Below, in pieces: positions 4,351 to 39,560 of a stretch of DNA of 64,000 nucleotides. Made by a program: the position numbers and the translations under genes. Each line of letters starts with the position of its first letter. Positions within the stretch are counted from its first letter, which is position 1. Source of the DNA: a virus; the IMG/VR virus record IMGVR_UViG_3300032053_000002, positions 108,752 to 172,751 of that record, one strand, 5' to 3'. The notes below the pieces were generated by a model, which saw nothing but the letters and a program-made list of their open reading frames with translations, ran no database searches and had not been told where the DNA came from.

Positions 4351-4617
4351 TTATTTTTTCCTCTTTTTTCTGGCCGCTGGCGGTATAGGTGGACGAGAAG
4401 TAGATGGCGGATAATTTTTTCCACCCTTAACAGTTTTGCCTTCGGTCAATAATGGAAAGTCGGGTTTAGAATTTTTCACGACTTCCGATAAAGCATCAAC
4501 CACAACTTGCTCCATTGTTTTTCCAACTTTGTTGGCATACGCTTCCAACTTTTTAAATAAGTCATTATCCAAATCGATTTCCACGTCCACATACTTTTTC
4601 ATTTTTTCTTTTTTCAT
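4351..4617 (-). CDS. hypothetical protein, 88 aa, Lys/Pro-rich C-terminus
   Basis: ORF track. Confidence 0.5.
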   Translation of the reverse strand: MKKEKMKKYVDVEIDLDNDLFKKLEAYANKVGKTMEQVVVDALSEVVKNSKPDFPLLTEGKTVKGGKNYPPSTSRPPIPPAARKKRKK

Positions 4618-6621: not shown

Positions 6622-7011
6622 TTATTCGTCAGATTCTTCGGATATGTTATCAATAACGTCTAAATCAAAATTATCTATTAAAAAATGCCACGAAGGCGTT
6701 CTGTCTTCCAGTGGAACGGTAGATAGTATTTTACCAACATCGAGACGACCAACTTTAAACGCAGTATACTCTTTATCACTATCAATATATTCTATCAGCT
6801 CCGGCACATTCGCGCGGTTGCATATATATTCCAACAGAAGTGAAAATATATCAAGCTCCCACAAGAAAGTATCCAGTCCCTCAACCTGTTCCTTAACAAA
6901 ATCTGAAAATTCCTTCGCGTCTATTGCCGATCCTTCCATCCATTCAATGAATTCATCTAATTGGTTATCATCAAGGTTAAACAATTCTTTTATTAAGTCA
7001 TCCATAATCAT
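6622..7011 (-). CDS. highly acidic hypothetical protein, 129 aa
   Basis: ORF track; Asp/Glu-rich throughout. Confidence 0.5.
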   Translation of the reverse strand: MIMDDLIKELFNLDDNQLDEFIEWMEGSAIDAKEFSDFVKEQVEGLDTFLWELDIFSLLLEYICNRANVPELIEYIDSDKEYTAFKVGRLDVGKILSTVPLEDRTPSWHFLIDNFDLDVIDNISEESDE

Positions 7012-7307
7012 GCCGCATCTCCTTTTTGGATTTTTGTTACTATTCCCAGTTTGTCAAATTGTTTTTTTAAATTATTTATATAATCATTGTCGCCGTCGGC
7101 GATAATGGTTTCTCCGGTATAGTGTGCTTCAGCGGCTCGTTTCAGCGCGTCATCAAACTCCATATCGCAGACTTCCACCAGCGCGTCCATGATATATTCC
7201 GCTTCATTGGTATCATCGTTCACCAGAACCAACACGGCGAAAGACCTATCAATGTTTATATCGTGTTTTATTCCTTCATCATTTAAAATACTCGTCAACT
7301 CTTTCAT
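7008..7307 (-). CDS. ClpS-like ATP-dependent Clp protease adaptor
   Basis: 99 aa; VLVLVNDDTNEAEYIMDALVEVC...HYTGE pattern resembles the ClpS core (VxLxNDDxxxxxFVxxxL...H..G). Confidence 0.45.
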   Translation of the reverse strand: MKELTSILNDEGIKHDINIDRSFAVLVLVNDDTNEAEYIMDALVEVCDMEFDDALKRAAEAHYTGETIIADGDNDYINNLKKQFDKLGIVTKIQKGDAA

Positions 7308-8730: not shown

Positions 8731-9159
8731 TCATTTTTTGTATTTTTTATAAATCGTATTCAATTGTTTAACATCTTCTTCTGTTAGTTTTGTAGATAAA
8801 AACCGAGTTGTACTGATTCTTCCGGTGCCGTCTATTTGAACGAATTTGTCTTTCAACATTTTCACATATTTTTTGTCGGCTCTAAACATCGAATCTCCCA
8901 TTCCACCCGTTGTTTTAGTTAATACTTCATACAAACGATACACCCTCAGCCATATATAAAACTTGTCGCAAATGTATTTAAGTCTTTCCAGTTGATTGCG
9001 AAATGTGTAATTAGTGCTTAACATCTGATTTAACAATATAATGTTAATTCTATTGTCAGGACCGACTTCAATGTCGGTAATTTTTATTTCGTCGACATAA
9101 TAACTATACCTTTGCAGATTTGACGTTGGCGAATTCCTAATTAATGTGGTTTTTTTCAT
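8731..9159 (-). CDS. paralog-family protein (CDKFYIWLRV core, C-terminal LNTIYKKYKK)
   Basis: 142 aa; shared motifs with at least 12 other ORFs in the window. Confidence 0.6.
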   Translation of the reverse strand: MKKTTLIRNSPTSNLQRYSYYVDEIKITDIEVGPDNRINIILLNQMLSTNYTFRNQLERLKYICDKFYIWLRVYRLYEVLTKTTGGMGDSMFRADKKYVKMLKDKFVQIDGTGRISTTRFLSTKLTEEDVKQLNTIYKKYKK

Positions 9160-9164
9160 TCTAT

Positions 9165-9617
9165 CTATCTATACTTTTTATAAATTTCATTTAACTTAAA
9201 AATATCGGCTTCTTCTATACTATTGACTCTAGAAAGAAACCAGGTCATTAACTTTCCACTGTTCATGTTGGCAATACCATCTTTTAATTCTTTTACATAA
9301 TTCAACGTTCCAACTTTAGCATTTTTAGAAATTAAAAGTTCGTATAAAGTATGCAATCGTAGCCATATATAAAACTTATCACACGCATACAAAACTTCTT
9401 CCGTAATTTTTTGTTTATCTCCGCCAAAATGAGAGATCGGAACCGTATAATCTATATTAAATATTTGATTTAGTAATGAAATCCTAATGGCCGGCCCCAG
9501 CGACTTTTCACCCCTATCAAATACTTCGATTTCTGTAATGCAATTCCCGCGTGAATGGTACTCATACACGGCGGATTTTGAATCGATATTAATTTCAACT
9601 AATTTAGATGTTTTCAT
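9165..9617 (-). CDS. paralog-family protein (CDKFYIWLRL, C-terminal LNEIYKKYR)
   Basis: 150 aa. Confidence 0.6.
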   Translation of the reverse strand: MKTSKLVEINIDSKSAVYEYHSRGNCITEIEVFDRGEKSLGPAIRISLLNQIFNIDYTVPISHFGGDKQKITEEVLYACDKFYIWLRLHTLYELLISKNAKVGTLNYVKELKDGIANMNSGKLMTWFLSRVNSIEEADIFKLNEIYKKYR

Positions 9618-9643
9618 TTTTTATCTTATCTTTTAATATAACT

Positions 9644-9705
9644 AATATAATCATTCCCGAACTACCAGTCAAGAATTATTTTTAAATATTGTGATTTTTT
9701 TCACA
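9644..9705 (-). promoter_or_regulatory. sigma70-like promoter TTGACT-N17-TATATT with upstream perfect TGTGA-N6-TCACA palindrome (9690-9705)
   Basis: Reverse complement TTGACT ggtagttcgggaatgat TATATT; palindrome TGTGATTTTTTTCACA. Confidence 0.6.
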
Positions 9706-9720
9706 TACCCGAATCCTTAC

Positions 9721-10236
9721 CTAATATGGGTTCGCACCTTTATACTTTTTATAAATTTCATTTAACTTAAAAATATCGGTTTCAGTTATACGCGCCGCCG
9801 TAATAGTCAGTCTTGTGTTTTTATCTTTAATGAATCGGCTTTTCAATTCATTTACATAACGCAAATCGTTCGCAAATGAAGACAAATCCACACTTACTCC
9901 GATAGTTATTAAATCGGCGCCAACATAATATCTTTCTATCATCTTGTAAAGTTTGTCTAATCGTCGCCAGATATAATATCTATTACACGTTATCAAGCAA
10001 TTATCCTGATTTGAAACCGCAAAAGTATAGTCGTGTAATTCCAAACGTTCATTTAATTCAGGAATCAATATTTCGTAGCAACTCATTGTTTCTCGGATGT
10101 CAACGCGAAAAAGTTGATATTTACCCATACGATATAGATATACTCGCCAGGTACCGAACAACGCTCCAGTTATTATCTGATAAGATTTGTCAGTATATAA
10201 TAAACTTCTATTGCCGATTTTTATTATACTTCGCAT
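9721..10236 (-). CDS. paralog-family protein (CNRYYIWRRL, C-terminal LNEIYKKYKG)
   Basis: 171 aa. Confidence 0.6.
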   Translation of the reverse strand: MRSIIKIGNRSLLYTDKSYQIITGALFGTWRVYLYRMGKYQLFRVDIRETMSCYEILIPELNERLELHDYTFAVSNQDNCLITCNRYYIWRRLDKLYKMIERYYVGADLITIGVSVDLSSFANDLRYVNELKSRFIKDKNTRLTITAARITETDIFKLNEIYKKYKGANPY

Positions 10237-10720
10237 ATATTCCGTTTAATTTTTTAATAGTTGATTTGCATATTTTTGGAGTGTGTCCTGCAAAATTAGT
10301 ATAAATTGCGCCCTTAGAAATATGAGAAAACCCCACTTTTAGTTTGGAAACATATCTTTTGTCTTTCAAATCAAAATTTTTCGCGGAAGAATTTATTAGC
10401 TCAAAAAGATTCTGTAGCCTTTTCCAAAAATAAAATCTATTACATATTCTTAAACACTCCGCAAGACACTCCGACGGTATTGCAAAAAAATCATTGTTGG
10501 GATCAGAAGAAAGCGTCGGCACGTATATGGTATAGTCAGGTATCGATAAATATTTTTGGAGTTCCATTATTTGTATTTTATTAAACGTATGACAAATATC
10601 AACTCTCGAAATAAGTACATCGTTTACTTTATAATGATATACGTACCAGAGATCATCCAGGGTATCAAACACGGTAGTAATATAGTCCAATTTTCTATTA
10701 TTAATTTCGGAGTTTTGCAT
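10208..10720 (-). CDS. paralog-family protein (CNRFYFWKRL, C-terminal LNGIYAKYNK)
   Basis: 170 aa; overlaps neighbours by a few codons (operon-like). Confidence 0.6.
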   Translation of the reverse strand: MQNSEINNRKLDYITTVFDTLDDLWYVYHYKVNDVLISRVDICHTFNKIQIMELQKYLSIPDYTIYVPTLSSDPNNDFFAIPSECLAECLRICNRFYFWKRLQNLFELINSSAKNFDLKDKRYVSKLKVGFSHISKGAIYTNFAGHTPKICKSTIKKLNGIYAKYNKNRQ

Positions 10721-11195
10721 ATATTTTATTCAGTTTTATAATGTCTTCTTTAGTTAAAATCGGCCCGGTCCGGGCTTGAAAATCGGTGAATAATATCCTA
10801 TTTTTATCCTGTATGGCGAATTTATGCATTAAAGATACGACATATTGCTGCATTTTCGCCATTTCATCCGAACCATCTTTACTATAAACGGTTGCGAGAT
10901 AAAGGTTATTTAACCTGTACCATATATAAAATCTATTGCATATTTTTAAGTATTCGTCCATTGATTGTGCGACTTTTTTTACTCGTATACAATAATCTGG
11001 TCTGTCATAATATTCATTTAAGAAAATTATTTTTATCAATCCCCCAGGATCTAAAGAAATGTAAACATTAGTTATGGCGACATCATCTACTTTATATTCA
11101 TATACGTCCCACTGGGTAATCGTGGCGACCTTTCCCGTAGAATCTTTCACTATTTCACTACGACCACCAACTTTTGTTAAAGTTTTATTTTCCAT
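10701..11195 (-). CDS. paralog-family protein (CNRFYIWYRL, C-terminal LNKIYAKLRN)
   Basis: 164 aa. Confidence 0.6.
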   Translation of the reverse strand: MENKTLTKVGGRSEIVKDSTGKVATITQWDVYEYKVDDVAITNVYISLDPGGLIKIIFLNEYYDRPDYCIRVKKVAQSMDEYLKICNRFYIWYRLNNLYLATVYSKDGSDEMAKMQQYVVSLMHKFAIQDKNRILFTDFQARTGPILTKEDIIKLNKIYAKLRN

Positions 11196-11697
11196 ACGGC
11201 GGTCTATATATTTTATAAAGTTTATTTAAAAGTTTAACTTCGTTGGGGACTAGTCCCAATTTTGAGTGGTGTTCTATGTGGTACGGAATTTTATTCAATA
11301 TTCCACCGCGCGGACATTTCACAAAAAGGTGTTTTTTTAAATTTTCAACATACCGGAGGTTCTCTTCGTGTATTCCAAGTTCGTGTCTGGTTAGTTCATT
11401 AACTACACTATAATTAGACATCATAACAGACAATAATTGTAGTCTATACCAAATATAAAATACATCACACGCGACGTTTAAATTACCGGTAATAGTTTGA
11501 TGTGGTCTCGGAGTTATTTTGATACTATAACTTTGGTCGCCTATAATATCGTTTAATATCTGGATTCGAATTACCCAACTATTGTTGTGATTTTGGCTCA
11601 AATAAACACGAGTTAGAAAGTTGCCGTTAGTATCGTAATTGTACTCGAATAAATCTTCGTCTCGCTCGTGTCTAATATAAACTAATTTTTTATCCAT
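11185..11697 (-). CDS. paralog-family protein (CDVFYIWYRL, C-terminal LNKLYKIYRP)
   Basis: 170 aa. Confidence 0.6.
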   Translation of the reverse strand: MDKKLVYIRHERDEDLFEYNYDTNGNFLTRVYLSQNHNNSWVIRIQILNDIIGDQSYSIKITPRPHQTITGNLNVACDVFYIWYRLQLLSVMMSNYSVVNELTRHELGIHEENLRYVENLKKHLFVKCPRGGILNKIPYHIEHHSKLGLVPNEVKLLNKLYKIYRPPYGK

Positions 11698-11774
11698 TTT
11701 TTCCCGCGGGTTTCAATTATAAAATAAAATCTTGCTTGCCGTGCAAATCTTGCCCGGACACTTTTTGCAACCAA

Positions 11775-12825: not shown

Positions 12826-13064
12826 AATATTTTCTCCGGAAACAAAATTTTGCGTCGTCTTTCGAGTTCCTTTTTGGTATCAGACGGAATCAGTTGCACT
12901 TTCATTACTCTGTCGCCGTTTCTCCAGCATGCTTTCCACGATTTATTAGCAGATTTTGCGTGTTCTTTTACGGCCTGTCGCCGAGTGAGCCACGTTTTTG
13001 GGTAGAATCCATCTTTACCGATGATTGCCCACATAATGATTTTTTTCATGTTGTGTCTTTCCAT
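12822..13064 (-). CDS. hypothetical basic protein, 80 aa
   Basis: ORF track. Confidence 0.45.
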   Translation of the reverse strand: MERHNMKKIIMWAIIGKDGFYPKTWLTRRQAVKEHAKSANKSWKACWRNGDRVMKVQLIPSDTKKELERRRKILFPEKIL

Positions 13065-13562
13065 ATTTTATTTAATTCCTTAATATCATTTAGAGATAGT
13101 TTTCCGTTATTCATAAAGTTTTTATATATATTTATAGTATCAGCTGAGCGAATCGTTTCAAATAACTTTGCAAATTTATCGTAAATACGATTGAACTTTT
13201 CAATGTGTTCTATATTAGATATATGAAATTCGACTGCAGAATGATTTGTCTTTGTTTGATATGCTATTTCATCTTTAATTTCTTTAATGTCCGAATATAC
13301 AAATATATAATTTGTGTTCCGATTTCCATAAAAAAATGTTTTTTCGATTCGGTATAGGTCATTTGTATCATTTACGAATACTAAATGCGGATGATGATAT
13401 ATTTCGCGTATTAACGAAAAATGCTGAAATACATCGGGAAGTTTTGTTTTTTTTATATCCGATAGGTAAATATACGGGTTCATCGCATTCTGTAACTTCT
13501 AATATTCCGGGAATGGTGTGTATATACTTATACTTTTTTGTAAATTCAAATGTATTTAACAT
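13046..13562 (-). pseudogene. paralog-family gene interrupted by a frameshift in an A8 homopolymer (track ORFs 13368..13562 and 13046..13483 are its two halves)
   Basis: N-terminal half MLNTFEF...IPGILEVTECDEP matches the N-termini of 8055 and 15381; downstream half continues the family sequence and ends with LNDIKELNKIWKDTT; the frame change falls at the tttttttt/aaaaaaaa run near 13448-13455. Confidence 0.45.
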
Positions 13563-14737: not shown

Positions 14738-14776
14738 AAAGATCCCCGCTTTTTTTCACGCGGGGATTTTTGTTTT
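14738..14776. terminator. rho-independent terminator, probably bidirectional (ATCCCCGC-loop-GCGGGGAT with flanking T/A runs)
   Basis: 8-bp GC-rich inverted repeat followed by TTTTTG on plus strand and preceded by AAAG. Confidence 0.65.
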
Positions 14777-14884
14777 CTTGGACAGATTTTCCGAAAAATT
14801 TTTAACTCCTTGACTTGAATTGTCGCCAGATGTGCCTCGTAAAATTCGTTTTTTATTAATAACTGCAAAATATGTTTATTGATA

Positions 14885-15075
14885 ACTGCGAAATACTTCA
14901 GGCGAAGTTATCTCTGCAAAATACTTCAGGCGTCCGTTCCGATGACAGAAGAATGATGTCAGCAAAATACTTCAAATGATGTCAGCAAAATACTTCAGGC
15001 GTCCGTTCCGATGACAGAAGAATGATGTCAGCAAAATACTTCAGGCGTCCGTTCCGATGACAGAAGAATGTGCGA
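14885..15075. repeat. iteron-like array: 17-mer GCAAAATACTTCAGGCG x5 within ~46-bp units x3
   Basis: Direct inspection; ORF-free region. Confidence 0.75.
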
Positions 15076-15380
15076 TACCCCTTGACCCGCTCGAGCGCAT
15101 TGCGCATCTCGGACTTCCTGACTTTCTACGCCTGAGACACACCCACCAAGACCACAAGACAGGCCATGTGAAACCCTTCACAAACTGCCATACCCGCACG
15201 ACTACCCCCGCACTAAAAGGCACTCGCCGCTCGTCTACTGGCACGTCCAGAAAACGTTCTCTGATGCGGGTTGACATCGTTATACCGCTCCAGCTCCGCT
15301 CCAGCTCCGCTCCAAATAGATATGGAGATTTTTTGCCCTGGAAAATAACTTACAGTTTGCAAAGAGTTATATAGTGGGAA

Positions 15381-15992
15381 TTATAAGTTAATTTTTTTTA
15401 TAGTGACATTGATTACAGGTGTTTGACGTAATAGCATATGATGATACTTATTCAGTGAGTCAATAGAGTTTTGTGTTAGTGTATCATCACTGATAAGTTT
15501 GTCGCGGATTTTTAGTATACTTTCCAATATATGAGGGCGAGTCCGTGATATGTCGACCGTAGCCGCTACGGTCGCGACGTTTTTATAACCGCTATCTATA
15601 TTCTTGTATAATTTTTCTATCTTAGCTAATAGATATATTTTCTTTATATAGCGAGTCGCCGCGGGGTGTTCCTTAATTATATGTTTAGTGAAATTGGGTC
15701 TATCGAAAAAGAATACAGTTTCCACATTTTCAATCAGCTTGAAATACTTGGGATCATCTTTAAGGATGCCGCCGTTCGCAATACGATATATTTCTTCATG
15801 AGTACCTGTTAACTTTATTCTACTCGCCCCTTCTTTAATCTCGGCGACGGTATTAAATACTTTCAGATTTTTCGGGAATGGAACTTCATATGATTCACCG
15901 ACGTTAAAATGCGGTTCCCCATCTGAAATCTCTATCATTCCCACCGTAGTAAAACGATAGCCGCTATCATTTATAAACTTATATGCCTTCAT
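15381..15992 (-). CDS. paralog-family protein, long form (N-terminal MKAYKF...IEISDGEPHF)
   Basis: 203 aa; N-terminus paralogous to 8055..8609. Confidence 0.55.
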   Translation of the reverse strand: MKAYKFINDSGYRFTTVGMIEISDGEPHFNVGESYEVPFPKNLKVFNTVAEIKEGASRIKLTGTHEEIYRIANGGILKDDPKYFKLIENVETVFFFDRPNFTKHIIKEHPAATRYIKKIYLLAKIEKLYKNIDSGYKNVATVAATVDISRTRPHILESILKIRDKLISDDTLTQNSIDSLNKYHHMLLRQTPVINVTIKKINL

Positions 15993-16416
15993 TGTTATAC
16001 TTTCTATTTATCTTGTTCAACTTTTTAACTTCGTCGCCAGTCAATCTAGACCGATTAAACTTGGTGCCTTGTATTGTACCAGGCGCCAATAAGTCACGCG
16101 ACGCAGGAGTTTTGCCAGCAGTAGAGAGAACTATAAATCTCGCTATAATTTCACCCACATAATCATGCGCCATCTTTGATCCAGGTCTGGTTGTATCATT
16201 CATACGTCCCAATGTAGCGTACAGTTTCAGTAATCTCCGATAGATATTATACCCTTTATACAAACTTATAAACAGCTGCTTAGCAGTAGTTAAATTCCGC
16301 GATGCATAGGTTTTTGGTATATCTTTTAATGTTAGTTCCGATTCCACCAATGAATATGTCGCCAGTACTTCACCGTTTTCCACGTACAGGTATTTAATCC
16401 ATTTTCCAGGTAACAT
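15979..16416 (-). CDS. paralog-family protein (C-terminal LNKINRKYNNEGI)
   Basis: 145 aa. Confidence 0.55.
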   Translation of the reverse strand: MLPGKWIKYLYVENGEVLATYSLVESELTLKDIPKTYASRNLTTAKQLFISLYKGYNIYRRLLKLYATLGRMNDTTRPGSKMAHDYVGEIIARFIVLSTAGKTPASRDLLAPGTIQGTKFNRSRLTGDEVKKLNKINRKYNNEGI

Positions 16417-18704: not shown

Positions 18705-18776
18705 AATATACCACCCCCCGGCGTATCAGTCAACTGTTATTTTAACTATTTTTTTAACCATATGAATTATTTCACA
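18705..18776 (-). promoter_or_regulatory. sigma70-like promoter TTGACT-N17-TATATT with UP-like AT block and upstream near-palindrome TATGAATTATTTCACA
   Basis: Reverse complement TTGACT gatacgccggggggtgg TATATT. Confidence 0.6.
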
Positions 18777-20193: not shown

Positions 20194-20265
20194 AATATAC
20201 CAAATCCCGGCTTACTAGTCAACTGCTATTTTAACTATTTTTTCAGCCTTGTGAATTATTTCACT
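20194..20265 (-). promoter_or_regulatory. sigma70-like promoter TTGACT-N17-TATATT plus upstream TGTGA-N6-TCAC half-palindrome
   Basis: Reverse complement TTGACT agtaagccgggatttgg TATATT ... GGAAGGA SD ... ATG. Confidence 0.6.
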
Positions 20266-20545: not shown

Positions 20546-20752
20546 TTATAGCGCTCCCATTCTTTTTAATTTGTTAATTGCGGTATGCAGTTCGTGGCAA
20601 AGATATTTATGCGCAACAAACTTTTCAACATCCTCTTCTTTTCGAGCACGGTGAACTATCGTATAGCGTTTGGATTCCTTAACCCACCCAAATACCAGCC
20701 ATTCGCGATGCCCCCTCAATGTCTTAAATAATCTTGGTCTTCCCGATTTCAT
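20546..20752 (-). CDS. hypothetical protein, 68 aa
   Basis: ORF track. Confidence 0.4.
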   Translation of the reverse strand: MKSGRPRLFKTLRGHREWLVFGWVKESKRYTIVHRARKEEDVEKFVAHKYLCHELHTAINKLKRMGAL

Positions 20753-21201
20753 TATACTTGTTCCTTGTTATATTTCATGTATATTTTATTTAATTTTGTC
20801 GCCACCTTTTCACCTATCGGAATCTTCTCATCGGATGAAATGGCTCTTAATACGGTTAGTATCAACATGCACGACTCTACCTCGTCACGATCTTCCCCCA
20901 CAGCAATTAACTGTAATTTTTTCAGCTTCTCATATAGTATCGTAAAATCTTTTAATTCCACGACTTTCGCTTTGTAAATGTATAAAATTTCGCCTCTTTT
21001 GTATTTATCTACTTTCGGCGTATTATTAGGATCAGAATGTCGTATATCAAATACCATACTAAAAGTACCGCTGGCATTCCCATACAAATCGACTGTGCCC
21101 GACCAGGGTTCGGCAGGTTCTATCAAAGAACCACCTAACCCCTGCTTCTCGTACCCGTCTTTTTTATCGAATTCTATTATCTTGTATACCATATCAATCA
21201 T
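20752..21201 (-). CDS. paralog-family-related protein (C-terminal LNKIYMKYNKEQV)
   Basis: 149 aa; has the C-terminal motif but lacks the FYIW core. Confidence 0.5.
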   Translation of the reverse strand: MIDMVYKIIEFDKKDGYEKQGLGGSLIEPAEPWSGTVDLYGNASGTFSMVFDIRHSDPNNTPKVDKYKRGEILYIYKAKVVELKDFTILYEKLKKLQLIAVGEDRDEVESCMLILTVLRAISSDEKIPIGEKVATKLNKIYMKYNKEQV

Positions 21202-21652: not shown

Positions 21653-21718
21653 ATTATATTTTAACTATTTTTATTCTTTGTGAAAAATTTCACTTTATTT
21701 GTGTCCTATTTTTTAATT

Positions 21719-22087
21719 TTAATGCCAGTTAGTCTGATATACGGAACTTCCACTCCATACGTACGCGCGTTCAAAAGAAGAGATCGATATAAACTCGCGA
21801 CCATCTTTGGTAAGTTTTACCTTTTTCATTTTATTTTCCATACGAGCATAGTCATTACCGGCATTTAGGTCAGGTATAACGTAGTCGCTTAAACCGGTTT
21901 CCCTCTTCACGATCTTCTGCCCCACTCCGACAACCTTCACAGACTTAGCGGTCACGGCAACCACTTTATAAAAGTTTACGTTGGTCTGTTCATAACCCCA
22001 GCAACTTACGAGAATGTCATTTACTTTCATTATTATTTCCCTTTTAGTTTTAGTGTCAACATAAATGGATACAACCGCGTCAACCAC
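21719..22087 (-). CDS. hypothetical protein, 122 aa
   Basis: ORF track. Confidence 0.5.
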   Translation of the reverse strand: MVDAVVSIYVDTKTKREIIMKVNDILVSCWGYEQTNVNFYKVVAVTAKSVKVVGVGQKIVKRETGLSDYVIPDLNAGNDYARMENKMKKVKLTKDGREFISISSFERAYVWSGSSVYQTNWH

Positions 22088-22325: not shown

Positions 22326-22691
22326 TTAATTAGTCCTCGACTTGGATGCACGTAACCAGTCAGTATTGACTACTACCGGAACGACATCAGTGATCTTACC
22401 ATTAGCAACTTTCGCTAACTGACCAATATATTTTTTGATTCTACGTTTGATGATGGCGAACTGCTTGTCAGTGATAAACCCAAACCGTGAATAGAAGTTA
22501 CCGATGCTGGTAAATATCTCACCATCGACACCAGTGAACCCCACTCCATTATCTTCGGTCGTACCAACGAATGATTTTTCGCCACGAGTCTGAAGAGAAT
22601 AGATTCTCAGGAAACCCTTGAATATGGCGTAGTCATTGTCTATCAGCATATTCGCTATATCTTCTTTATTATACTTTGGTTTTGTTTTCAT
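22326..22691 (-). CDS. hypothetical protein, 121 aa
   Basis: ORF track; consensus promoter at 22700-22728. Confidence 0.5.
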   Translation of the reverse strand: MKTKPKYNKEDIANMLIDNDYAIFKGFLRIYSLQTRGEKSFVGTTEDNGVGFTGVDGEIFTSIGNFYSRFGFITDKQFAIIKRRIKKYIGQLAKVANGKITDVVPVVVNTDWLRASKSRTN

Positions 22692-22699
22692 AATAGTAT

Positions 22700-22728
22700 A
22701 ATATACAATTCCTCAGTATAACAGTCAA
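22700..22728 (-). promoter_or_regulatory. sigma70-like promoter TTGACT-N17-TATATT
   Basis: Reverse complement TTGACT gttatactgaggaattg TATATT. Confidence 0.55.
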
Positions 22729-22754
22729 ATTATTTTTTAACTATTCTTACAGAG

Positions 22755-22883
22755 TGTGAAATTATTCACAAGATCGTCGCCGTGACTGGCGACTTGCCAT
22801 CCCGAGCCTTGTGAAGTTTTTCACAAAGTAGCGGCTCAGCTTGACGCGAGCAAGCGGCCGGCCGCGTTGTGAAATTTTTCACA
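22755..22883. promoter_or_regulatory. cluster of three perfect CRP-like palindromes TGTGA-N6-TCACA (22755-22770, 22810-22825, 22868-22883) with GC-rich hairpins between them
   Basis: TGTGAAATTATTCACA, TGTGAAGTTTTTCACA, TGTGAAATTTTTCACA; also GTCGCC-gtgactg-GGCGAC hairpin and 12-bp palindrome GCGGCCGGCCGC. Confidence 0.6.
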
Positions 22884-22899
22884 AGCGACTGTAATAAAA

Positions 22900-23255
22900 A
22901 AGTCCTACGTCCGTGACTTCCATGTAGCCTCGGGTTGCGATCCCGTTCGTCATGGCCTCGTCACGTAATTCGTAGGACTTTTCTCACCTAAGTCGTTTCC
23001 GACTGTCCACATTACCTGCTAGCCGGCGGGATAGTTGGATGGGCGACGACTCCCATCATCTCATACCGACACATACGGCCGGTGCGCCTTTCTTCCTTAG
23101 ACCACAACTATTTTCGGTGATTCTCGCGATTTCTGCCGAATTCGCGATACTTTTATTCATTTCTCAAAGAACAAAAGAGTGCCCCGTAGGACACCCCCGA
23201 ACGTTCTCCCGGGGAGTGTCCTCCACGCGGGTATACGTTCCATATTTGATATACT
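22900..23255 (-). ncRNA. candidate ~350-nt structured non-coding RNA (GC-rich, ORF-free, own promoter and terminator-like 3' stem)
   Basis: Consensus promoter at 23256-23284 fires into this segment; no credible ORF on either strand; 3' end forms long stem GTCCTACG...CGTAGGAC followed by a U-run (plus-strand aaaaaaGTCCTACG at ~22905); GC content far above surrounding DNA. Confidence 0.4.
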
Positions 23256-23753: not shown

Positions 23754-23829
23754 TGGGGTGCACGGTGAGATTCGAACTCACGCTCCGCGGGTCACAGCCG
23801 CGTAATGCTACCGCTACATCACGCGCACC
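23754..23829 (-). tRNA. tRNA-His (anticodon GTG) with G-1:C73 and encoded CCA
   Basis: Reverse complement G-GTGCGCG..anticodon stem CGCGG/CCGCG loop CTGTGAC..T-arm GTGAG TTCGAAT CTCAC..CGTGCAC-C-CCA. Confidence 0.85.
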
Positions 23830-24086: not shown

Positions 24087-24524
24087 TTACTTATTTTTTG
24101 CGTATGCATTTAGTGCCCATCTCCACATTTCGTTTAAAAACCCAACGTCTTTTATACTGAGTTTGCGGGTTTTTAAAAATTCTTTATAAAATAACGTTAT
24201 TTCCGTTGCTGATTCGGTACACCCGACATTCTTTAAACTACTAATTAAAAGCTCAATTTTTTCGCTGATTCTTTTTATTTTCTCTTCGGGCGACTCTACT
24301 CTTTCTAGTACGAAAAATGGAAAATTATATCCGCTATCAAGATGAATTCCTTTACTTCCGCTACAAATAAACGTTATGTCGCCCTCTTCACCGACATATT
24401 TGTCCATCATAGAAGTCCAAGTATTATCCCATCCATTTTCATGATTATGAGCAATCATTACAACTTTTACTCTGTCGCCAACTTTGAATCCGGCAGCTTT
24501 TTGTTTGATTTCGTATTCACTCAT
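24087..24524 (-). CDS. hypothetical protein, 145 aa; paralog of 24521..24955
   Basis: Shares KVGDRVKVV...W.NTW N-terminal block and C-terminal FLNEMW motif with neighbour. Confidence 0.55.
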   Translation of the reverse strand: MSEYEIKQKAAGFKVGDRVKVVMIAHNHENGWDNTWTSMMDKYVGEEGDITFICSGSKGIHLDSGYNFPFFVLERVESPEEKIKRISEKIELLISSLKNVGCTESATEITLFYKEFLKTRKLSIKDVGFLNEMWRWALNAYAKNK

Positions 24525-24955
24525 TTTTTAATATACGCTTTCCATATTGCATTTAAATACTCAACATCGTCTATACTGAATTTATGACTTTTTTTAAATC
24601 GCGCGTACATTTTATACACTTCGTTAGCAACACGTTTGCATCCGTTATTCTGTAAACCACTAATTAAACGCTCAAACTTTTCACTTACTCTCTTTATTTT
24701 CTCATCGGACGACTTCACTTTTTTCAGTACGGAAGGTGGGAATCTGTATGTCGGGCCTTTACGGGGAATACTTTCTAAACGAATTCCTGCGGTCTTATGA
24801 ATATCGGATATAACCATTATTTTGCCAACACTTTTATTCATCTCAAGTACCCATGTATTCCGCCACTCACTCGTGTAGCTCTCAGCAATACCGGTAACTT
24901 TTACTTTGTCGCCGATTTTGAACTGGGTGGGGGTTCTCTTTTTTCCTGGCGACAT
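24521..24955 (-). CDS. hypothetical protein, 144 aa; paralog of 24087..24524
   Basis: KIGDKVKVTGIAESYTSEWRNTW; C-terminal YLNAIWKAYIKK. Confidence 0.55.
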   Translation of the reverse strand: MSPGKKRTPTQFKIGDKVKVTGIAESYTSEWRNTWVLEMNKSVGKIMVISDIHKTAGIRLESIPRKGPTYRFPPSVLKKVKSSDEKIKRVSEKFERLISGLQNNGCKRVANEVYKMYARFKKSHKFSIDDVEYLNAIWKAYIKK

Positions 24956-25563: not shown

Positions 25564-25664
25564 GAACTATTTTCGCTATAGCGGCATTCCGGACGGCAAT
25601 GCGGTCGTAACTAGAGCCCTTCGTGAACTTTTTCACATACGGTCTGTACGTTTTCTGTAAGTGG

Positions 25665-25745
25665 TTTTTCAATCCGCTCGCTCCTCTCGGTTGCAATCCG
25701 CTCGCTCCTCTCGGTTGTCAATTCGCTCGCTCCTCTCGGTTGTAG
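25665..25745. repeat. ~23-bp direct repeat x3 (ccgctcgctcctctcggttgcaat)
   Basis: Direct inspection, GC-rich ORF-free island. Confidence 0.8.
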
Positions 25746-25854
25746 GGGGCAACTCGGTAGACGTGTCAGGCGAGTTCAGAACCGTGCATGCAAATAGGCA
25801 GCCTGAAGTGTGTTCGTCGTGTGGGGGGGTTCTTGGCGGGAGTTTGTGGTTTGT

Positions 25855-25912
25855 GCGGGAGTTCTTGCGAGAGTTTGCGCGGGAGTTCTTGCGGGAGTTT
25901 GCGCGAGGAATC
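25855..25912. repeat. ~22-bp direct repeat x2.5 (gcgggagttcttgcgagagttt)
   Basis: Direct inspection. Confidence 0.75.
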
Positions 25913-26084
25913 GTGGAGAAGTGGGGGCATGGGGGTGGCGGTGCTTCCGACGAGTAGCAATTGCGCATCGGCAATACCTGCGACCCACTATTATAATATT
26001 ATCCGAATATCAAAAAGGCGTGGATTATTTATTTATAATAGGGAAGTGATTATCAATTCCAGCAAGTTGTATCAAATAGGCGAG

Positions 26085-26165
26085 TGATATGCAGCGATAT
26101 GCAGTGATATGCAGCGATATGCAGTGATATGCAGTGATATGCAGTGATATGCAGCGATATGCGCT
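26085..26165. repeat. 10-bp tandem repeat gatatgcagY x8
   Basis: Direct inspection. Confidence 0.85.
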
Positions 26166-26178
26166 GTAATATATATGG

Positions 26179-27201: not shown

Positions 27202-27558
27202 CTATTTTTCTTTTATTGTAAACGTGCTGTCAGTAGGTTGAGTAATGATGTAGTGATTGTCCCCTATTACTACTGGGATTTCGCGTGGTTTGGATCTAAA
27301 TTGATTACTTTTCAATATACGAGAAATTTCCATTAACTTGCGCCTTGGTTCATCATACTTTCGGAATATTATAAACTTTTCTTTTTGAAAGTTGATTTCG
27401 TCGATAACCGCAAACAACGAATCACCAATCTCTTTTGAAAAACTATTTTTTTCGGAGAGTATCTTAAAAATAACCGTCAACTCTTCGGTTGGTTCTATAT
27501 CACAACCGAGCGACATTAAAAATATAGAACATAATAATAATAACATTAAATTTTTCAT
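27202..27558 (-). CDS. putative lipoprotein, 118 aa
   Basis: MKNLMLLLLCSIFLMSLGC lipobox-like signal. Confidence 0.5.
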   Translation of the reverse strand: MKNLMLLLLCSIFLMSLGCDIEPTEELTVIFKILSEKNSFSKEIGDSLFAVIDEINFQKEKFIIFRKYDEPRRKLMEISRILKSNQFRSKPREIPVVIGDNHYIITQPTDSTFTIKEK

Positions 27559-27980
27559 TTTTTAACTCCAATTATTTTTGCTATTTTATTTAATCTTAAC
27601 ACATCATATTCGGTAAGGCGAGTACCCGAAAGATGAGTCCAATTTTCATTGGCTCCGTAACTCTCAACAAACTTTTCTACTAAACGATTAACATAAATTC
27701 GATCTCCCCACGCCTTTTGTTTGGAGTATGATAAATATATCCCATCGTTTATAAACCTATTAAGTTTATTCGATAATATTTTTAATCGTCGCCAGATAGT
27801 TAAACCCTTGTATAAACCGTCTATTTTCTTCTTTGCCTCGTCAACCGTCATTATATCATAATAGTTGGCCGGAACTTCAAGTATAACCATAATCTGAGAA
27901 TCGGGTTTCCATTCGGCTATTGCGGGTACGCGACGATCTTCATAACAAAAATTTCCAACCCACGTCAAAACATCATTCAT
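27555..27980 (-). CDS. paralog-family protein (TIWRRLK core, C-terminal LNKIAKIIG)
   Basis: 141 aa. Confidence 0.55.
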   Translation of the reverse strand: MNDVLTWVGNFCYEDRRVPAIAEWKPDSQIMVILEVPANYYDIMTVDEAKKKIDGLYKGLTIWRRLKILSNKLNRFINDGIYLSYSKQKAWGDRIYVNRLVEKFVESYGANENWTHLSGTRLTEYDVLRLNKIAKIIGVKK

Positions 27981-28468
27981 CTATTCTTATTTCCTTCAAC
28001 GCACCTATTTATTTTATTTAGCATTTTTACTTCTTCGTCAGTTAGTCTCGACTCAAATCGCGGTATAACTTTTATGCTTCCAGGAACTTCGGCGGACTCT
28101 AGATAAGTAACAAATTTGCCAATTAGCCCATTAACATACCTTTCGTATTCTTCCAATACCAGAGACATTTTGGCGTAAGAAGATGGATAGTCTTTGTATT
28201 TAACCACCAGAGTTTTTTCCAGTTCAATAATTTTAAGTAGTAATTCTTTTAATCTTCGCCAGATGGTTGTGCCCTTATACAGGTCGTTCATCGCAACTTT
28301 TGCTACATCGAGGCTTAGGCAATCATGGTATACGTGCGGAACTTCGTGTAATATTAAAGATTTTTCTTCTGCGTTATAAGTCGCTATCTTATTAGAAGAC
28401 CCGGTTTTCACGTCGCCTTCGTAACATTCATCATCAACCCATTGTAAAGTATTTTTTATTGCGTTCAT
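27977..28468 (-). CDS. paralog-family protein (TIWRRLK core, C-terminal LNKINRCVEG)
   Basis: 163 aa. Confidence 0.55.
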   Translation of the reverse strand: MNAIKNTLQWVDDECYEGDVKTGSSNKIATYNAEEKSLILHEVPHVYHDCLSLDVAKVAMNDLYKGTTIWRRLKELLLKIIELEKTLVVKYKDYPSSYAKMSLVLEEYERYVNGLIGKFVTYLESAEVPGSIKVIPRFESRLTDEEVKMLNKINRCVEGNKNR

Positions 28469-36952: not shown

Positions 36953-38566
36953 TTAATTATCCTTCTTTAATTTGCTTACTAAAAGTTTCAATTCATAAAA
37001 ATATAAAAAATCAATTTGAGTTTTTAAAAAACATTCGATGGCATCTTTTGGAGTTTCAACAATAGGCTCTCTATCGTTAAAACTGGTATTCAATATTAAA
37101 GGGATTCCGGTTTTTTCTTTCCATTTTTTTAAAAAATTATAATACCATTTATTGTCTTTTTCTGTTACGGTTTGTATTCTCGCCGAACCGTCTGCGTGAA
37201 CTACTGCCGGAACTTTGTTTTTCATATCTTCTTTAAATTTAACAACGATAGACATATATGGACTGTCTACATCTCTAACAAACCAATCTTCTACGTCTTC
37301 TCTCAAAATACTCGGAGCAAAAGGGCGAAACCACTGGCGATGTTTTACTTTTTCATTTACTTTATCTTTCATTTTTATGTCGCGAGGATCGGCAAGAATA
37401 CTTCTATTTCCCAGTGCTCTTCTTCCGGTTTCAGATTTTCCACCATATACGGAAATTATTTTTTGGTTATTCAATAAATCAATGGCTTCTTCATCATTTG
37501 AATTCCGTGATTCGATGTTGCTATATTGTTTAATAGATTTAAAAACGTCCGAATCAGGATAAGAATACCCCAAATACGGAGTGAAATTATCTTTCCAGAA
37601 TATTCGAGGATTGTTGTTGATATGATGCCAAAAGTATTGAGCGGAGCCGATGGCGCACCCAGAATCAGCTGGGGTTGGTGATACGTATATTCCGTCAACG
37701 TTGGGAAACCAATCATAAAGTTTCCCGACCATAACGGAATTAAGAGCCACCCCTCCGGCCAAGCATAAGAATGTTGGGTTGTATTTTTCAATATAGGGCG
37801 ACAATGTTTCTCGAATTAAAATTTCTGTATATTTTTGAAGCGCCGCGGCGACATCAAATTTATATTGCTCATTCTGCTGTATAAGTTCTCGAAGTGCTTC
37901 ACGCGATATAGGAATTTCTTGAGTTACATTTTTGAAAAATCTTTCCGGGTCTCCAAACGCAGACATTGCCATAACCGTTCCTTCCTGAGATCCAATCGGA
38001 TACCCGACAGACAACCCGAATACCTGACTCGTATATTTCTGCCATATCTCTCCGATATTTGGGTCTCCCTGAAATATTTTGATGGGGTATATTTTATTAT
38101 CCACACCTGCCCAAATAGTAAATCCGGAAACTTGTTTACAAATACCACCGTCTTCGCCATTATGAAATTCGTCGCCACCACCATCCATCGTAATAATTAA
38201 CGCATTTTTATAATTGGAAGAAAAAAACGCATTCGCTGCATGAGATTTATGATGCCCAATACCATAACTGGGATTAGTTCCCGGGTCTCCATAAAAGTTA
38301 GCTATTTTTTCAGCTTTTTCATACGTATCAGGGTATCGTTTTTTAATTCCGCCGTGCCATGTCATAACAGGATGAGTAAATGCGTTTATATCACTATAAT
38401 ATGGATATACATTAAACATGAATTCAATAGAATCGGAAACTTTCATCTTCTCTCGCGAAAATCTTTCCAACTCGTGATGAACGGTCGGTATTCCATTTTC
38501 TAATATTGCAAATGAGCAATCATGCCCGCTAAGAAGTCCGCATATTTTCATTTCTTTTATCTCCAT
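36953..38566 (-). CDS. carbamoyltransferase (NodU/CmcH family)
   Basis: 537 aa; N-terminal ICGLLSGHDCSFAILENG Kae1/YrdC-like fold start and HHxSHAANAFF motif typical of this family. Confidence 0.75.
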   Translation of the reverse strand: MEIKEMKICGLLSGHDCSFAILENGIPTVHHELERFSREKMKVSDSIEFMFNVYPYYSDINAFTHPVMTWHGGIKKRYPDTYEKAEKIANFYGDPGTNPSYGIGHHKSHAANAFFSSNYKNALIITMDGGGDEFHNGEDGGICKQVSGFTIWAGVDNKIYPIKIFQGDPNIGEIWQKYTSQVFGLSVGYPIGSQEGTVMAMSAFGDPERFFKNVTQEIPISREALRELIQQNEQYKFDVAAALQKYTEILIRETLSPYIEKYNPTFLCLAGGVALNSVMVGKLYDWFPNVDGIYVSPTPADSGCAIGSAQYFWHHINNNPRIFWKDNFTPYLGYSYPDSDVFKSIKQYSNIESRNSNDEEAIDLLNNQKIISVYGGKSETGRRALGNRSILADPRDIKMKDKVNEKVKHRQWFRPFAPSILREDVEDWFVRDVDSPYMSIVVKFKEDMKNKVPAVVHADGSARIQTVTEKDNKWYYNFLKKWKEKTGIPLILNTSFNDREPIVETPKDAIECFLKTQIDFLYFYELKLLVSKLKKDN

Positions 38567-39560
38567 TTATCATATAATATTTTTTCCAATATTCGATCAT
38601 TTCATCTAACATTTCTTCAAATGTTATTTCCGGTTTCCAACCCGTAGCATTTCTTAATTTGGTCGAGTCTCCCCGTAGTTCATTTAGTTCTTCAGGTCGT
38701 AAATATTTTTTATCAATTTTAACATAATTTTTCCAATCCAATCCTAAAGATGCAAATACATATTCGAGCAATTCCTTAACTGAATGAGATACACCGGTGG
38801 CACAAACAAAATCATCTGGACTATCTTGTTGTAAAATTAACCACATGGCTTTGGCATAATCTTTTGCGTGTCCCCAATCTCTTTTTGCATCAATATTTCC
38901 GAGGACTAACTCGTTTTCCAATCCAAGTTTTATTTCTGTAGCTCTCTTAACAATTTTATTAGTGACAAAATTAGTTCCTCGAACAGGCGATTCATGATTA
39001 AATAAAATTCCATTTGATGCGAATAATTTATATGAATGTCTATAATTTCTTGTAATATTATACGCAAATAATTTCGAGCATCCGTATGGACTTACTGGAT
39101 TTTTTGGCGTTGTTTCTCGCTGAAATCCATCACTATCAATATTGTTTCCAAACATTTCGCTTGAGCTCGCCTGATAAAATTTCGCGTTAGGAGTGATTAA
39201 TTTAATGGCTTCTAATAAGTTCAACGTTCCTATCGCATTCGTCTGTGACGTATAAATAGGTTGGTCGAAACTTATTCTAACATGAGATTGCGCCGCGAGA
39301 TTATAAATTTCGTCGGGCCGTGAATCTTGTAATACACGAATTAGCGAAGACATATCCGTCATGTCACCATAAACAAGTTCTAATTTTTTATGTAATTCTT
39401 TTTTAAACAGATCTTGTAATCTAGATGTTTGATTTTCGGCGACAGAATTTCTTTTTACTATTCCCCAGACTTTATAATTTTTTTCTAATAAGAATCTCGC
39501 TAAATAGCTTCCGTCCTGACCACCGGCACCAGTGAGGAACGCGACTTTTTTTATTCTCAT
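38529..39560 (-). CDS. gmd: GDP-mannose 4,6-dehydratase
   Basis: 343 aa; FLTGAGGQDGSYLARFLLEKNYKVWGIVKRNS N-terminus and YGCSKLFAY catalytic YxxxK are characteristic of GMD. Confidence 0.85.
   Translation of the reverse strand: MRIKKVAFLTGAGGQDGSYLARFLLEKNYKVWGIVKRNSVAENQTSRLQDLFKKELHKKLELVYGDMTDMSSLIRVLQDSRPDEIYNLAAQSHVRISFDQPIYTSQTNAIGTLNLLEAIKLITPNAKFYQASSSEMFGNNIDSDGFQRETTPKNPVSPYGCSKLFAYNITRNYRHSYKLFASNGILFNHESPVRGTNFVTNKIVKRATEIKLGLENELVLGNIDAKRDWGHAKDYAKAMWLILQQDSPDDFVCATGVSHSVKELLEYVFASLGLDWKNYVKIDKKYLRPEELNELRGDSTKLRNATGWKPEITFEEMLDEMIEYWKKYYMINGDKRNENMRTS

Follow-up and report, generated by a model that had tools for sequence, protein, structure and literature searches.

A non-coding stretch of viral DNA, positions 22755-22883 of the 64,000-nucleotide window analysed here (positions 108,752 to 172,751 of IMG/VR record IMGVR_UViG_3300032053_000002), contains three perfect palindromes, which we tentatively predict from their sequence to be operators of the Rex type placed on early-promoter cassettes of a large phage. 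The three palindromes, hereafter called boxes, belong to a family of nine that is strongly enriched in the window, is placed upstream of a subset of its promoters, and has the same sequence as natural Rex operators found in bacteria.

Each of the three boxes has a perfect TGTGAA-N4-TTCACA core: TGTGAAATTATTCACA at 22755-22770 (box 1), TGTGAAGTTTTTCACA at 22810-22825 (box 2) and TGTGAAATTTTTCACA at 22868-22883 (box 3). The distance from start to start is 55 bp between boxes 1 and 2 and 58 bp between boxes 2 and 3. When the flanks are included (TTGTGAATAATTTCACAc, TTGTGAAAAACTTCACAA and TTGTGAAAAATTTCACAA), all three are bordered by T on one side and A on the other, so that the repeated unit becomes TTGTGAA-W4-TTCACAA. 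The original prediction, which had reported three such palindromes with a GTCGCC/GGCGAC hairpin and a 12-bp palindrome between them, is borne out in these respects. Both GC-rich spacers between the boxes occur only once within the window. The cluster and its promoter are composed of the following elements, where the distances of box centres assume a transcription start 7 nt after the -10 element, the start sites being predicted and not mapped.

22867-22884 (no strand): box 3, TTGTGAAATTTTTCACAA, 18/18 against the Rex consensus; 58 bp upstream of box 2, centre at about -182.5
22839-22865 (no strand): GC-rich spacer between boxes 2 and 3, in which the hairpin GCTTG..CAAGC (22839-22855) overlaps the 12-bp palindrome GCGGCCGGCCGC (22854-22865)
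22809-22826 (no strand): box 2, TTGTGAAGTTTTTCACAA, 18/18 against the Rex consensus; 55 bp upstream of box 1, centre at about -124.5
22776-22793 (no strand): GC-rich spacer hairpin between boxes 1 and 2, GTCGCC(gtgact)GGCGAC; RNA fold -11.2 kcal/mol
22754-22771 (no strand): box 1, promoter-proximal, 17/18 against TTGTGAANNNNTTCACAA; centre at about -69.5 from the predicted start of the 22728 promoter
22729-22745 (minus strand): A/T-rich tract resembling an UP element, AATAGTTAAAAAATAAT, between box 1 and the -35 element; near-verbatim in the cassettes at 18733, 20222 and 21652
22700-22728 (minus strand): sigma-70-type promoter, TTGACT at 22728-22723, 17 bp, TATATT at 22705-22700; one of at least 13 perfect copies in the window

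With up to one mismatch allowed, TGTGAANNNNTTCACA has nine sites in the window against 0.21 +/- 0.46 expected, and none of 100 dinucleotide shuffles reached nine. No other palindrome with arms of at least 6 bp occurs as often as three times in the 64 kb. All nine boxes are non-coding and fall within one 16-kb segment of raised G+C (9.7-25.6 kb); no box was found in the remaining 48 kb of the window, nor in the 10 kb beyond its start. The six boxes outside the cluster are listed here.

9690-9705 (no strand): box, 17 bp upstream of a TTGACT-17-TATATT promoter; centre at about -60.5
15167-15182 (no strand): box with the G/C-rich centre GGGT, in a GC-rich, repeat-laden non-coding region; no adjacent promoter found
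18761-18776 (no strand): box with one mismatch, 27 bp upstream of the -35 element in the promoter of a 750-aa gene; centre at about -70.5
20250-20265 (no strand): box with one mismatch, 27 bp upstream of the -35 element in the promoter of an AAA_5 ATPase gene
21679-21694 (no strand): box with one mismatch, 26 bp upstream of TTGACT-17-TAATAT
25622-25637 (no strand): box with one mismatch, 58 bp upstream of the -35 element, centre at about -101.5; GC-rich hairpin insert before the UP-like tract

Six of the nine boxes are found upstream of near-perfect TTGACT-N17-TATATT promoters, with gaps to the -35 element of 17, 26, 26, 27, 27 and 58 bp. Five of these six share one layout, which consists of the box, an A/T-rich UP-like tract similar to (A)AAAATAGTTAAAATA, and TTGACT-N17-TATATT; at the sixth (box 25622), a GC-rich insert stands ahead of a short A/T stretch, and 58 bp separate the box from the -35 element. 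The box thus marks a subset (six of about 14) of otherwise identical promoters, as eight or more further perfect copies in the window lack it. On the predicted start sites, the promoter-proximal boxes are centred at -60.5, -69.5/-70.5 and -101.5, offset by about one and about three helical turns; boxes 2 and 3 do not keep the helical phase of box 1. Promoters of the TTGACT-N17-TATATT type (e.g., those at 18733, 20222, 23284, 24077 and 25563) also have a second element, (G)TATA, 3-4 nt after the -10 (TATATTtagGTATAca, TATATTtaaGTATAca, TATATTaGTATAtc). At the 22728 promoter, an ATG is located only 8 nt past the -10 element, which suggests either a leaderless mRNA or a true start elsewhere.

The Rex operator of S. 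aureus, TTGTGAAW4TTCACAA, has critical positions 4 and 5, tolerant positions 1 and 7, and a required A/T spacer (PMC2883068), and the portion of PMC5317091 that cites Ravcheev 2012 gives a general Rex consensus, TTGTGAANNNNTTCACAA. Against the 18-bp form TTGTGAA-N4-TTCACAA, boxes 1, 2 and 3 agree at 17, 18 and 18 of the 18 positions. Among the 18 half-sites of the family, T4, G5 and A6 are invariant (18/18), A7 is present in 17 and T1 in 10; in eight of the nine boxes the central 4 bp are A/T-rich. This pattern of half-site conservation and A/T spacers parallels the mutational hierarchy of the S. aureus operator (PMC2883068).

The core of the CRP site, TGTGA-N6-TCACA, is likewise present in all three boxes, and to that extent the CRP-type label attached to them by the original prediction is justified; the conserved unit, however, is longer, and fits the Rex operator. 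The E. coli CRP consensus has T right after TGTGA, and A before TCACA. Here, the base after TGTGA is A in all 18 half-sites, the boxes do not conform to the 22-bp CRP consensus AAATGTGATCTAGATCACATTT, and its A/T-rich flanks are missing at the three boxes (gatct/ctctg, tactt/aggct, tcgct/acgcg).

Natural occurrences of the tandem motif were collected by a blind scan of IMG/VR and JGI metagenomes for two bare TGTGAA-N4-TTCACA cores 30-60 bp apart. Clustering of the open reading frames (ORFs) at these loci grouped proteins of about 210 aa from five bacterial contigs that are unrelated to one another. Each of the genes starts beside the boxes, and in all five contigs the protein carries PF06971 and PF02629, which is the architecture of Rex itself. 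Other genes directly downstream of tandem boxes code for Ldh (three cases), Pyr_redox_2 (three cases) and a NuoE/HydC-like 2Fe-2S protein (one case). The genes at tandem boxes, i.e., rex, ldh and NADH oxidoreductases, are the classic Rex regulon, and the motif is a Rex operator in nature. No CRP/FNR-family, crp- or arc-type genes, nor typical CRP targets, were seen among the ORFs sampled beside tandem boxes. A replication origin was also considered, as TTATTCACA fits the DnaA box TTATNCACA, and was rejected: there is no skew inflection, the palindromes are strict and promoter-linked, and the identical sequence occurs at bacterial rex and ldh promoters.

The metagenome scan for tandem cores also recovered 18 viral loci in IMG/VR, many of them with dense clusters of boxes (22 in L156, 13 in L168, 10 in L164, and 8 each in L159 and L161). 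In L156 (IMGVR_UViG_3300045988_163471), positions 1-700 and 2300-2900 are arrays with a 29-bp period and at least 22 units, each with TGTGAA-N4-TTCACA, and L163 has a tandem array at 11623-11754, of the same period and with the palindrome in every unit, iteron- or centromere-like as in L156. These iteron-like arrays could serve a protein other than Rex. In L164, a locus on a 176-kb contig, a TTGACA...TATAAT promoter follows a pair of boxes and leads into a small ORF whose AGGAGG ribosome-binding site is strong. A conserved protein of the L164 phage group has 37% identical homologues in Enterococcus phages of about 140 kb, and we therefore examined the full genome of one cultured representative, Enterococcus phage EF1 (MF001358.1), whose host genus belongs to the Firmicutes. 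The EF1 genome contains five perfect boxes, against 0.005 expected, and one more with a single mismatch, all within a small-ORF region, in two long stretches of non-coding DNA at 63.9-64.5 kb and 70.0-70.8 kb. The same part of the genome has five cre-like boxes of the type bound by CcpA, two of them perfect (TGTAAGCGCTTACA), and the company of Rex-type and cre boxes indicates that sites for global metabolic regulators of the host accumulate in non-coding hubs of phages. Segments 63.8-64.5 and 68.6-70.8 kb of EF1 (L294) also hold many AAAATAACA/TGTTATTT repeats, and may be a multi-regulator control hub. The relatives of EF1 that were found have the same boxes and are all at least 95% identical to it; cre boxes sought in our window gave no good matches. 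The preference for T at -1 (65-81% of boxes) and the A/T-rich spacers are alike in bacterial Rex loci, viral loci, EF1 and the window. We found no publication on Rex boxes in phage genomes in the literature searched.

The surroundings of the cluster show which promoter the boxes could serve. On the coding strand, the 600-bp gap at 23292-22692 holds, in this order, the end of a 59-aa ORF, a promoter, a structured RNA, a terminator-like helix, boxes 3, 2 and 1, the UP-like tract, a promoter, and the ATG at 22691. The first of the two promoters (23284-23256) is a perfect TTGACT-17-TATATT ahead of the structured RNA, which is GC-rich, about 355 nt long (22890-23250, minus strand; z = -4.4), and ends in a terminator. 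Its border with the boxes and the gene on their other side are as follows.

22890-22982 (minus strand): terminator-like closing helix AAAGTCCTACG...CGTAGGACTTT with a T tract, at the end of the structured RNA and forming the 5' border of the box cluster
22326-22691 (minus strand): first gene downstream of the cluster, for a 121-aa all-helical protein, followed by ORFs of 65 and 122 aa

As the boxes are located 3' of the terminator of the non-coding RNA, their position suits an action on the downstream promoter (22728-22700), the one that precedes the 121-aa ORF, and not on the RNA. The adjacent RNA and divergent genes had both been named as possible targets; the flanking genes are in fact co-oriented, both on the minus strand. 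What stands of that proposal is its more general part: given a non-random, repeated and promoter-linked family of operator-like sites, a regulatory hub or a titrating element is a reasonable role, though not for the control of divergent genes.

Strain variants are consistent with constraint on the boxes. In L155 and L064 (98.7-99.2% identity), all boxes, UP-like tracts and promoters are unchanged. In the 98.7% identical haplotype L155, five of the six intergenic substitutions in the 16.5-24.6 kb interval are found in the two GC spacers between the boxes, three between boxes 1 and 2 and two between boxes 2 and 3. These five substitutions preserve no predicted helix consistently and show no compensatory pattern. 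The spacers look like weakly constrained filler or hairpins, and the boxes look constrained, although with 96 box positions the difference is statistically not decisive. The spacer substitutions form two patches of 4-5 nt (22794-22797 and 22837-22841), which may be due to patchy conversion or to relaxed constraint. Among strain contigs with 98.7-100% identity, no indel is bounded by a box.

A search for the protein that reads the boxes covered the 105 ORFs of the window with Pfam and its six-frame ORFs with a Rex HMM; no Rex, CRP, HTH_Crp, winged-helix or other helix-turn-helix domain was found, and the 10 kb beyond the window start likewise gave no candidate regulator. The sole candidate DNA-binding protein in the window is an 88-aa Arc-like ribbon-helix-helix (RHH) protein at 4351-4617 (phrog_876/582, E ~1e-5). 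There is no box near its gene, and nothing ties it to the boxes.

In three respects of sequence the boxes agree with the Rex-operator class, and in position they do not. Rex is known as a repressor, with sites on or directly beside the core promoter (PMC2883068). The boxes described here are centred, on predicted starts, at about -60 to -182.5, upstream of the UP-like tract, and so fit Rex less well, given that it acts at or next to the core promoter; this leaves room for class I-type activation, interference with the UP element, a roadblock, or titration. Several further observations weigh against assigning the boxes to Rex. At other box-bearing phage loci, no fixed spacing between box and promoter was seen. 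Within the window, the fixed spacing may merely reflect duplication of the cassette: homology extends past the palindrome, as TTCACAaGGCT is common to the boxes at 20250, 22810 and 25622, and with such shared sequence the cassettes are paralogous and their regular spacing is weak evidence of a phase requirement. Two distant homologues of the 121-aa protein (59% and 41% identity) have promoters and no box upstream of their genes. At least one box-bearing viral contig, L163, has a terminase whose nearest counterparts are in phages of Acinetobacter, Pseudomonas and Salmonella, and the palindrome may be read by different proteins in different phages. Finally, in the window itself, a homologue of ClpS and a pair of CobS/CobT-like proteins hint, by homology, at a host outside the Bacilli; the taxonomic distribution of ClpS points away from Bacilli-type Firmicutes. 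Rex, for its part, occurs in many anaerobic phyla.

Among other proteins that could occupy the boxes, a host activator of the CRP/FNR family (CRP-cAMP, Vfr, SyCRP-like or Fnr/ArcR-type) is an unlikely candidate, which would act as at class I promoters, with the C-terminal domain of the RNA polymerase alpha subunit (alpha-CTD) on the UP-like tract and the upstream boxes adding occupancy or serving as a sink. Busby and Ebright reportedly place class I CRP sites at -61.5 and -71.5, and the promoter-proximal centres fall within 1-2 bp of these values, about one and about three turns apart and directly upstream of an A/T tract; the resemblance of -60.5, -69.5/-70.5 and -101.5 to the class I series -61.5, -71.5, -82.5 and -92.5 involves unmapped starts and a spacing that duplication of the cassette can explain, and boxes 2 and 3 are out of phase. 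The core is perfect in the three boxes, and yet a CRP/FNR site leaves the near-invariant A at core position 6, the T at position 11 (T and A, respectively, in the E. coli consensus) and the W4 centre unexplained, and the A/T-rich flanks of the 22-bp site are missing. ClpS and the cyanophage-like CobS/CobT hint at a Gram-negative or cyanobacterial host, and the L163 array is found in a phage with a terminase like those of phages of Gram-negative hosts; the ORFs sampled at tandem boxes, on the other hand, include no CRP/FNR genes or typical targets. We give a similarly low probability to a dimeric regulator encoded by the phage, e.g., a repressor for an early-to-middle switch, either the Arc-like RHH protein or a protein from outside the window, which would share the half-site by chance. 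Confinement of the boxes to a 16-kb segment and to six of about 14 promoters is what a temporal class would look like, an RHH protein is encoded in the window, the 29-bp iteron-like arrays of L156 and L163 resemble dedicated arrays for binding of a phage protein more than they do host operator sites, and in the L157 phage group a small MarR-like protein is encoded in several copies close to the boxes. On the other side, no winged-helix, HTH_Crp or Rex domain is present in the 105 window ORFs, the RHH gene lacks a box nearby, and, to our knowledge, operators of Arc, Mnt and CopG do not resemble the box. Moreover, the window has almost no protein family in common with the other box-bearing phage loci (the sole exception is the 122-aa ORF at 21719-22087, with counterparts of about 36% identity in L170 and L221), which makes a common phage-encoded reader improbable, and in EF1 the boxes co-occur with cre sites for the host's CcpA.

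A role that needs no protein at all appears quite improbable. The boxes would then be stem-loops of recombination cassettes similar to the promoter-early stem-loops (PeSLs) of T4-like phages, with promoter-less boxes as relics of shuffling, or RNA hairpins that terminate or stabilise read-through transcripts. The architecture does resemble that of PeSLs (PMC4122927), the homology past the palindrome indicates duplication of cassettes, and the region of the cluster folds well (z = -5.2). The box hairpins themselves are weak as RNA (-3.8 to -6.0 kcal/mol), A/U-rich, and followed by A-rich or GC-rich sequence and not by a U tract; they thus lack the G+C-rich stem and U tract of an intrinsic terminator, and a terminator scan did not call them. 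Nor does recombination explain why 17 or 18 of the 18 positions agree with the consensus of a transcription factor, or the use of the same motif in unrelated phages and at bacterial rex and ldh promoters, and no strain indel is bounded by a box. The boxes are neither control elements of divergent genes nor terminators.

Comparison with known systems leads back to the Rex-type operator as the closest relative of the box itself. The Rex operators of Gram-positive and other anaerobic bacteria, such as those at the ldh, adhE, cyd and rex promoters of S. aureus and B. subtilis, have the same 18-bp inverted repeat and the same pattern of conservation, and a regulatory region there typically contains two or three boxes with tens of bp between them, as it does here. 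The differences are in setting: those operators belong to a host metabolic regulon and overlap the core promoter, whereas the phage boxes, in a lytic-type genome, precede an UP-like element and are centred at about -60 to -180. Class I CRP promoters of the lac type share with the phage cassettes the TGTGA-N6-TCACA core, an upstream site, which on the predicted starts may keep to one helical face, and an A/T tract before the -35 element. They differ in that the phage half-site is TGTGAA, with a W4 centre and without CRP flanks, that three sites are stacked out of phase, and that the phage promoters already have consensus -35 and -10 elements and an UP-like tract, and should need no activator.

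The architecture of the cassette is closest to that of the PeSL cassettes of T4-like phages, in which a repeated stem-loop is joined to a near-perfect sigma-70 early promoter in hyperplastic, ORFan-rich regions (Comeau 2014, PMC4122927). The window, too, has a composite of stem-loop and promoter in paralogous copies, scattered over an ORFan-rich part of a phage that measures about 170 kb or more. PeSL stem-loops, however, have G/C-containing stems and are read as terminators, unlike the A/T-rich palindrome without a U tract seen here, and the phage cassettes have in addition a 26-27 bp UP-like tract before the -35 element, a transcription-factor consensus, and three boxes in a row with one promoter. 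A terminator role and cassettes bounding the indels between close relatives, both of which go with PeSLs, were not observed here. PeSL cassettes are reportedly also the subject of a 2010 study by Arbiol. As to phage use of host-regulator sites for sensing the state of the host, Spo0A boxes are found near the early promoters of phi29. Those boxes are sites for a global regulator of the host in a control region of a phage, as the cre and Rex-like boxes of EF1 and the boxes described here, in early or non-coding control regions, would be.

The window is 100% identical to part of an ENA metagenome contig of 168,695 bp; the phage is uncultured and has at least 169 kb. It has about 33% G+C, nearly all of its genes are on the minus strand, and its gene content is phage-like, with a phage metallopeptidase, HNH endonucleases and a CobS-like AAA_5 ATPase beside the 750-aa partner. 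Searches with the window by megablast and blastn found no close relatives among GenBank phages, and IMG/VR likewise has none; scans of IMG/VR for the promoter and box patterns gave chance matches or nothing. Relatives of the AAA-ATPase (at most 53% identity) have no boxes, the next-best homologue of its 750-aa neighbour is 39% identical, and the 121-aa gene has only five homologues, of which the two mentioned above have usable upstream DNA. The 121-aa protein itself gave a helical structural model (pLDDT 75) with no significant fold match in PDB. As to the host, the Gmd protein, compared with 185k genomes, has matches of at most 55% identity spread over many phyla, the closest match of the CobS/CobT-like pair in a cultured phage is from a Microcystis phage, and hosts of other box-bearing viral contigs gave a mixed signal or none.

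The structured RNA upstream of the cluster has zero substitutions among the strain contigs. A match to the Rfam skipping-rope RNA at 23031-23105 is below threshold (21.6 bits, gathering cutoff 36.7, E = 0.02-0.18). In variant L064 (120-230), an insertion of about 100 nt at window positions of about 23130-23140 contains GTTCGAATCC, which resembles a tRNA T-arm; neither ARAGORN nor Rfam calls a tRNA there. The window has five tRNA genes, namely an array of four tRNA-Ser genes at 985-2107 (anticodons GGA, CGA, TGA and GCT) and a lone tRNA-His at 23754-23828, 460 nt upstream of the promoter of the structured RNA. Two GC-rich, repeat-laden non-coding regions, 14740-15380 and 25640-26178, each have a box at or near their promoter-proximal end. 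The former contains a 46-bp repeat (2.1 copies) and an 11-bp repeat; the latter has GCATATCRCT eight times (26083-26162), a 24-25-bp repeat three times (25669-25743) and a 12/24-bp repeat (25849-25905), and the 101-aa ORF at 25669-25974 is probably spurious.

A paralogous family of proteins of about 140-170 aa, which have in common a CxxFYIWxRL core and, at the C-terminus, the motif (T/S)xxDxxKLNKIYKKY, has at least 11 aligned members, found within 8731-11697, 13046-13483, 15979-16416, 20752-21201, 24087-24955 and 27555-28468 (the C-terminus in 24087-24955 is similar by eye); a profile search of 5.8 billion proteins matched this phage only. Elsewhere in the window there are a hybrid protein of 500 aa with PAS, HisKA, HATPase and receiver domains (2742-4244) and the ClpS-like adaptor (99 aa, 7008-7307), and just beyond the window start (L297) there are a stand-alone receiver-domain protein and a NADAR-domain protein. 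A 28-kb block at 36154-63803 is devoted to nucleotide sugars and glycan modification, and includes Gmd (38529-39560), seven SDR epimerase/dehydratase paralogues, a Nol-like carbamoyltransferase, a DegT aminotransferase, a B12-binding radical SAM enzyme, GT2 glycosyltransferases and several methyltransferases.

If the boxes are of the Rex type, they would be operators for a dimeric transcription factor of that specificity in the early-gene segment of a large phage, and 22755-22883 would be one cassette with two extra high-affinity boxes stacked upstream and fast-evolving GC-rich hairpin spacers between them. As to the binding protein and the sign of its effect, we infer that the likeliest occupant would be the Rex repressor of the host, which senses NADH/NAD+ and is bound to DNA at low NADH. 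Rex might then tune a subset of early promoters according to the redox state of the host, whether it hinders contacts of the alpha-CTD with the UP-like tract, binds the three boxes cooperatively or loops the DNA between them, or stops transcription that runs on from the RNA upstream. Alternatively, the boxes might sequester Rex as the phage DNA replicates, so that NAD+-regenerating genes of the host would be de-repressed.

It is conceivable, if doubtful, that unrelated large phages, such as this one, EF1 and those represented by the IMG/VR contigs, carry clusters of Rex operators that gate early transcription on NADH/NAD+ or act as a replicating, Rex-titrating 'sponge' that forces NAD+-regenerating fermentation. 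If so, phages would have a DNA-encoded means of taking over host metabolism that has not been described before, in which a phage could titrate a master regulator of the host with its own DNA. Reading of the boxes by host Rex would establish a direct link, at the level of sequence, between phage early gene control and the redox state of the host, and the sequence signature could be used for finding such control hubs in metagenomic phages. Even if the reader is a CRP-family or phage protein, the boxes would still define a discrete promoter class in an orphan phage lineage.

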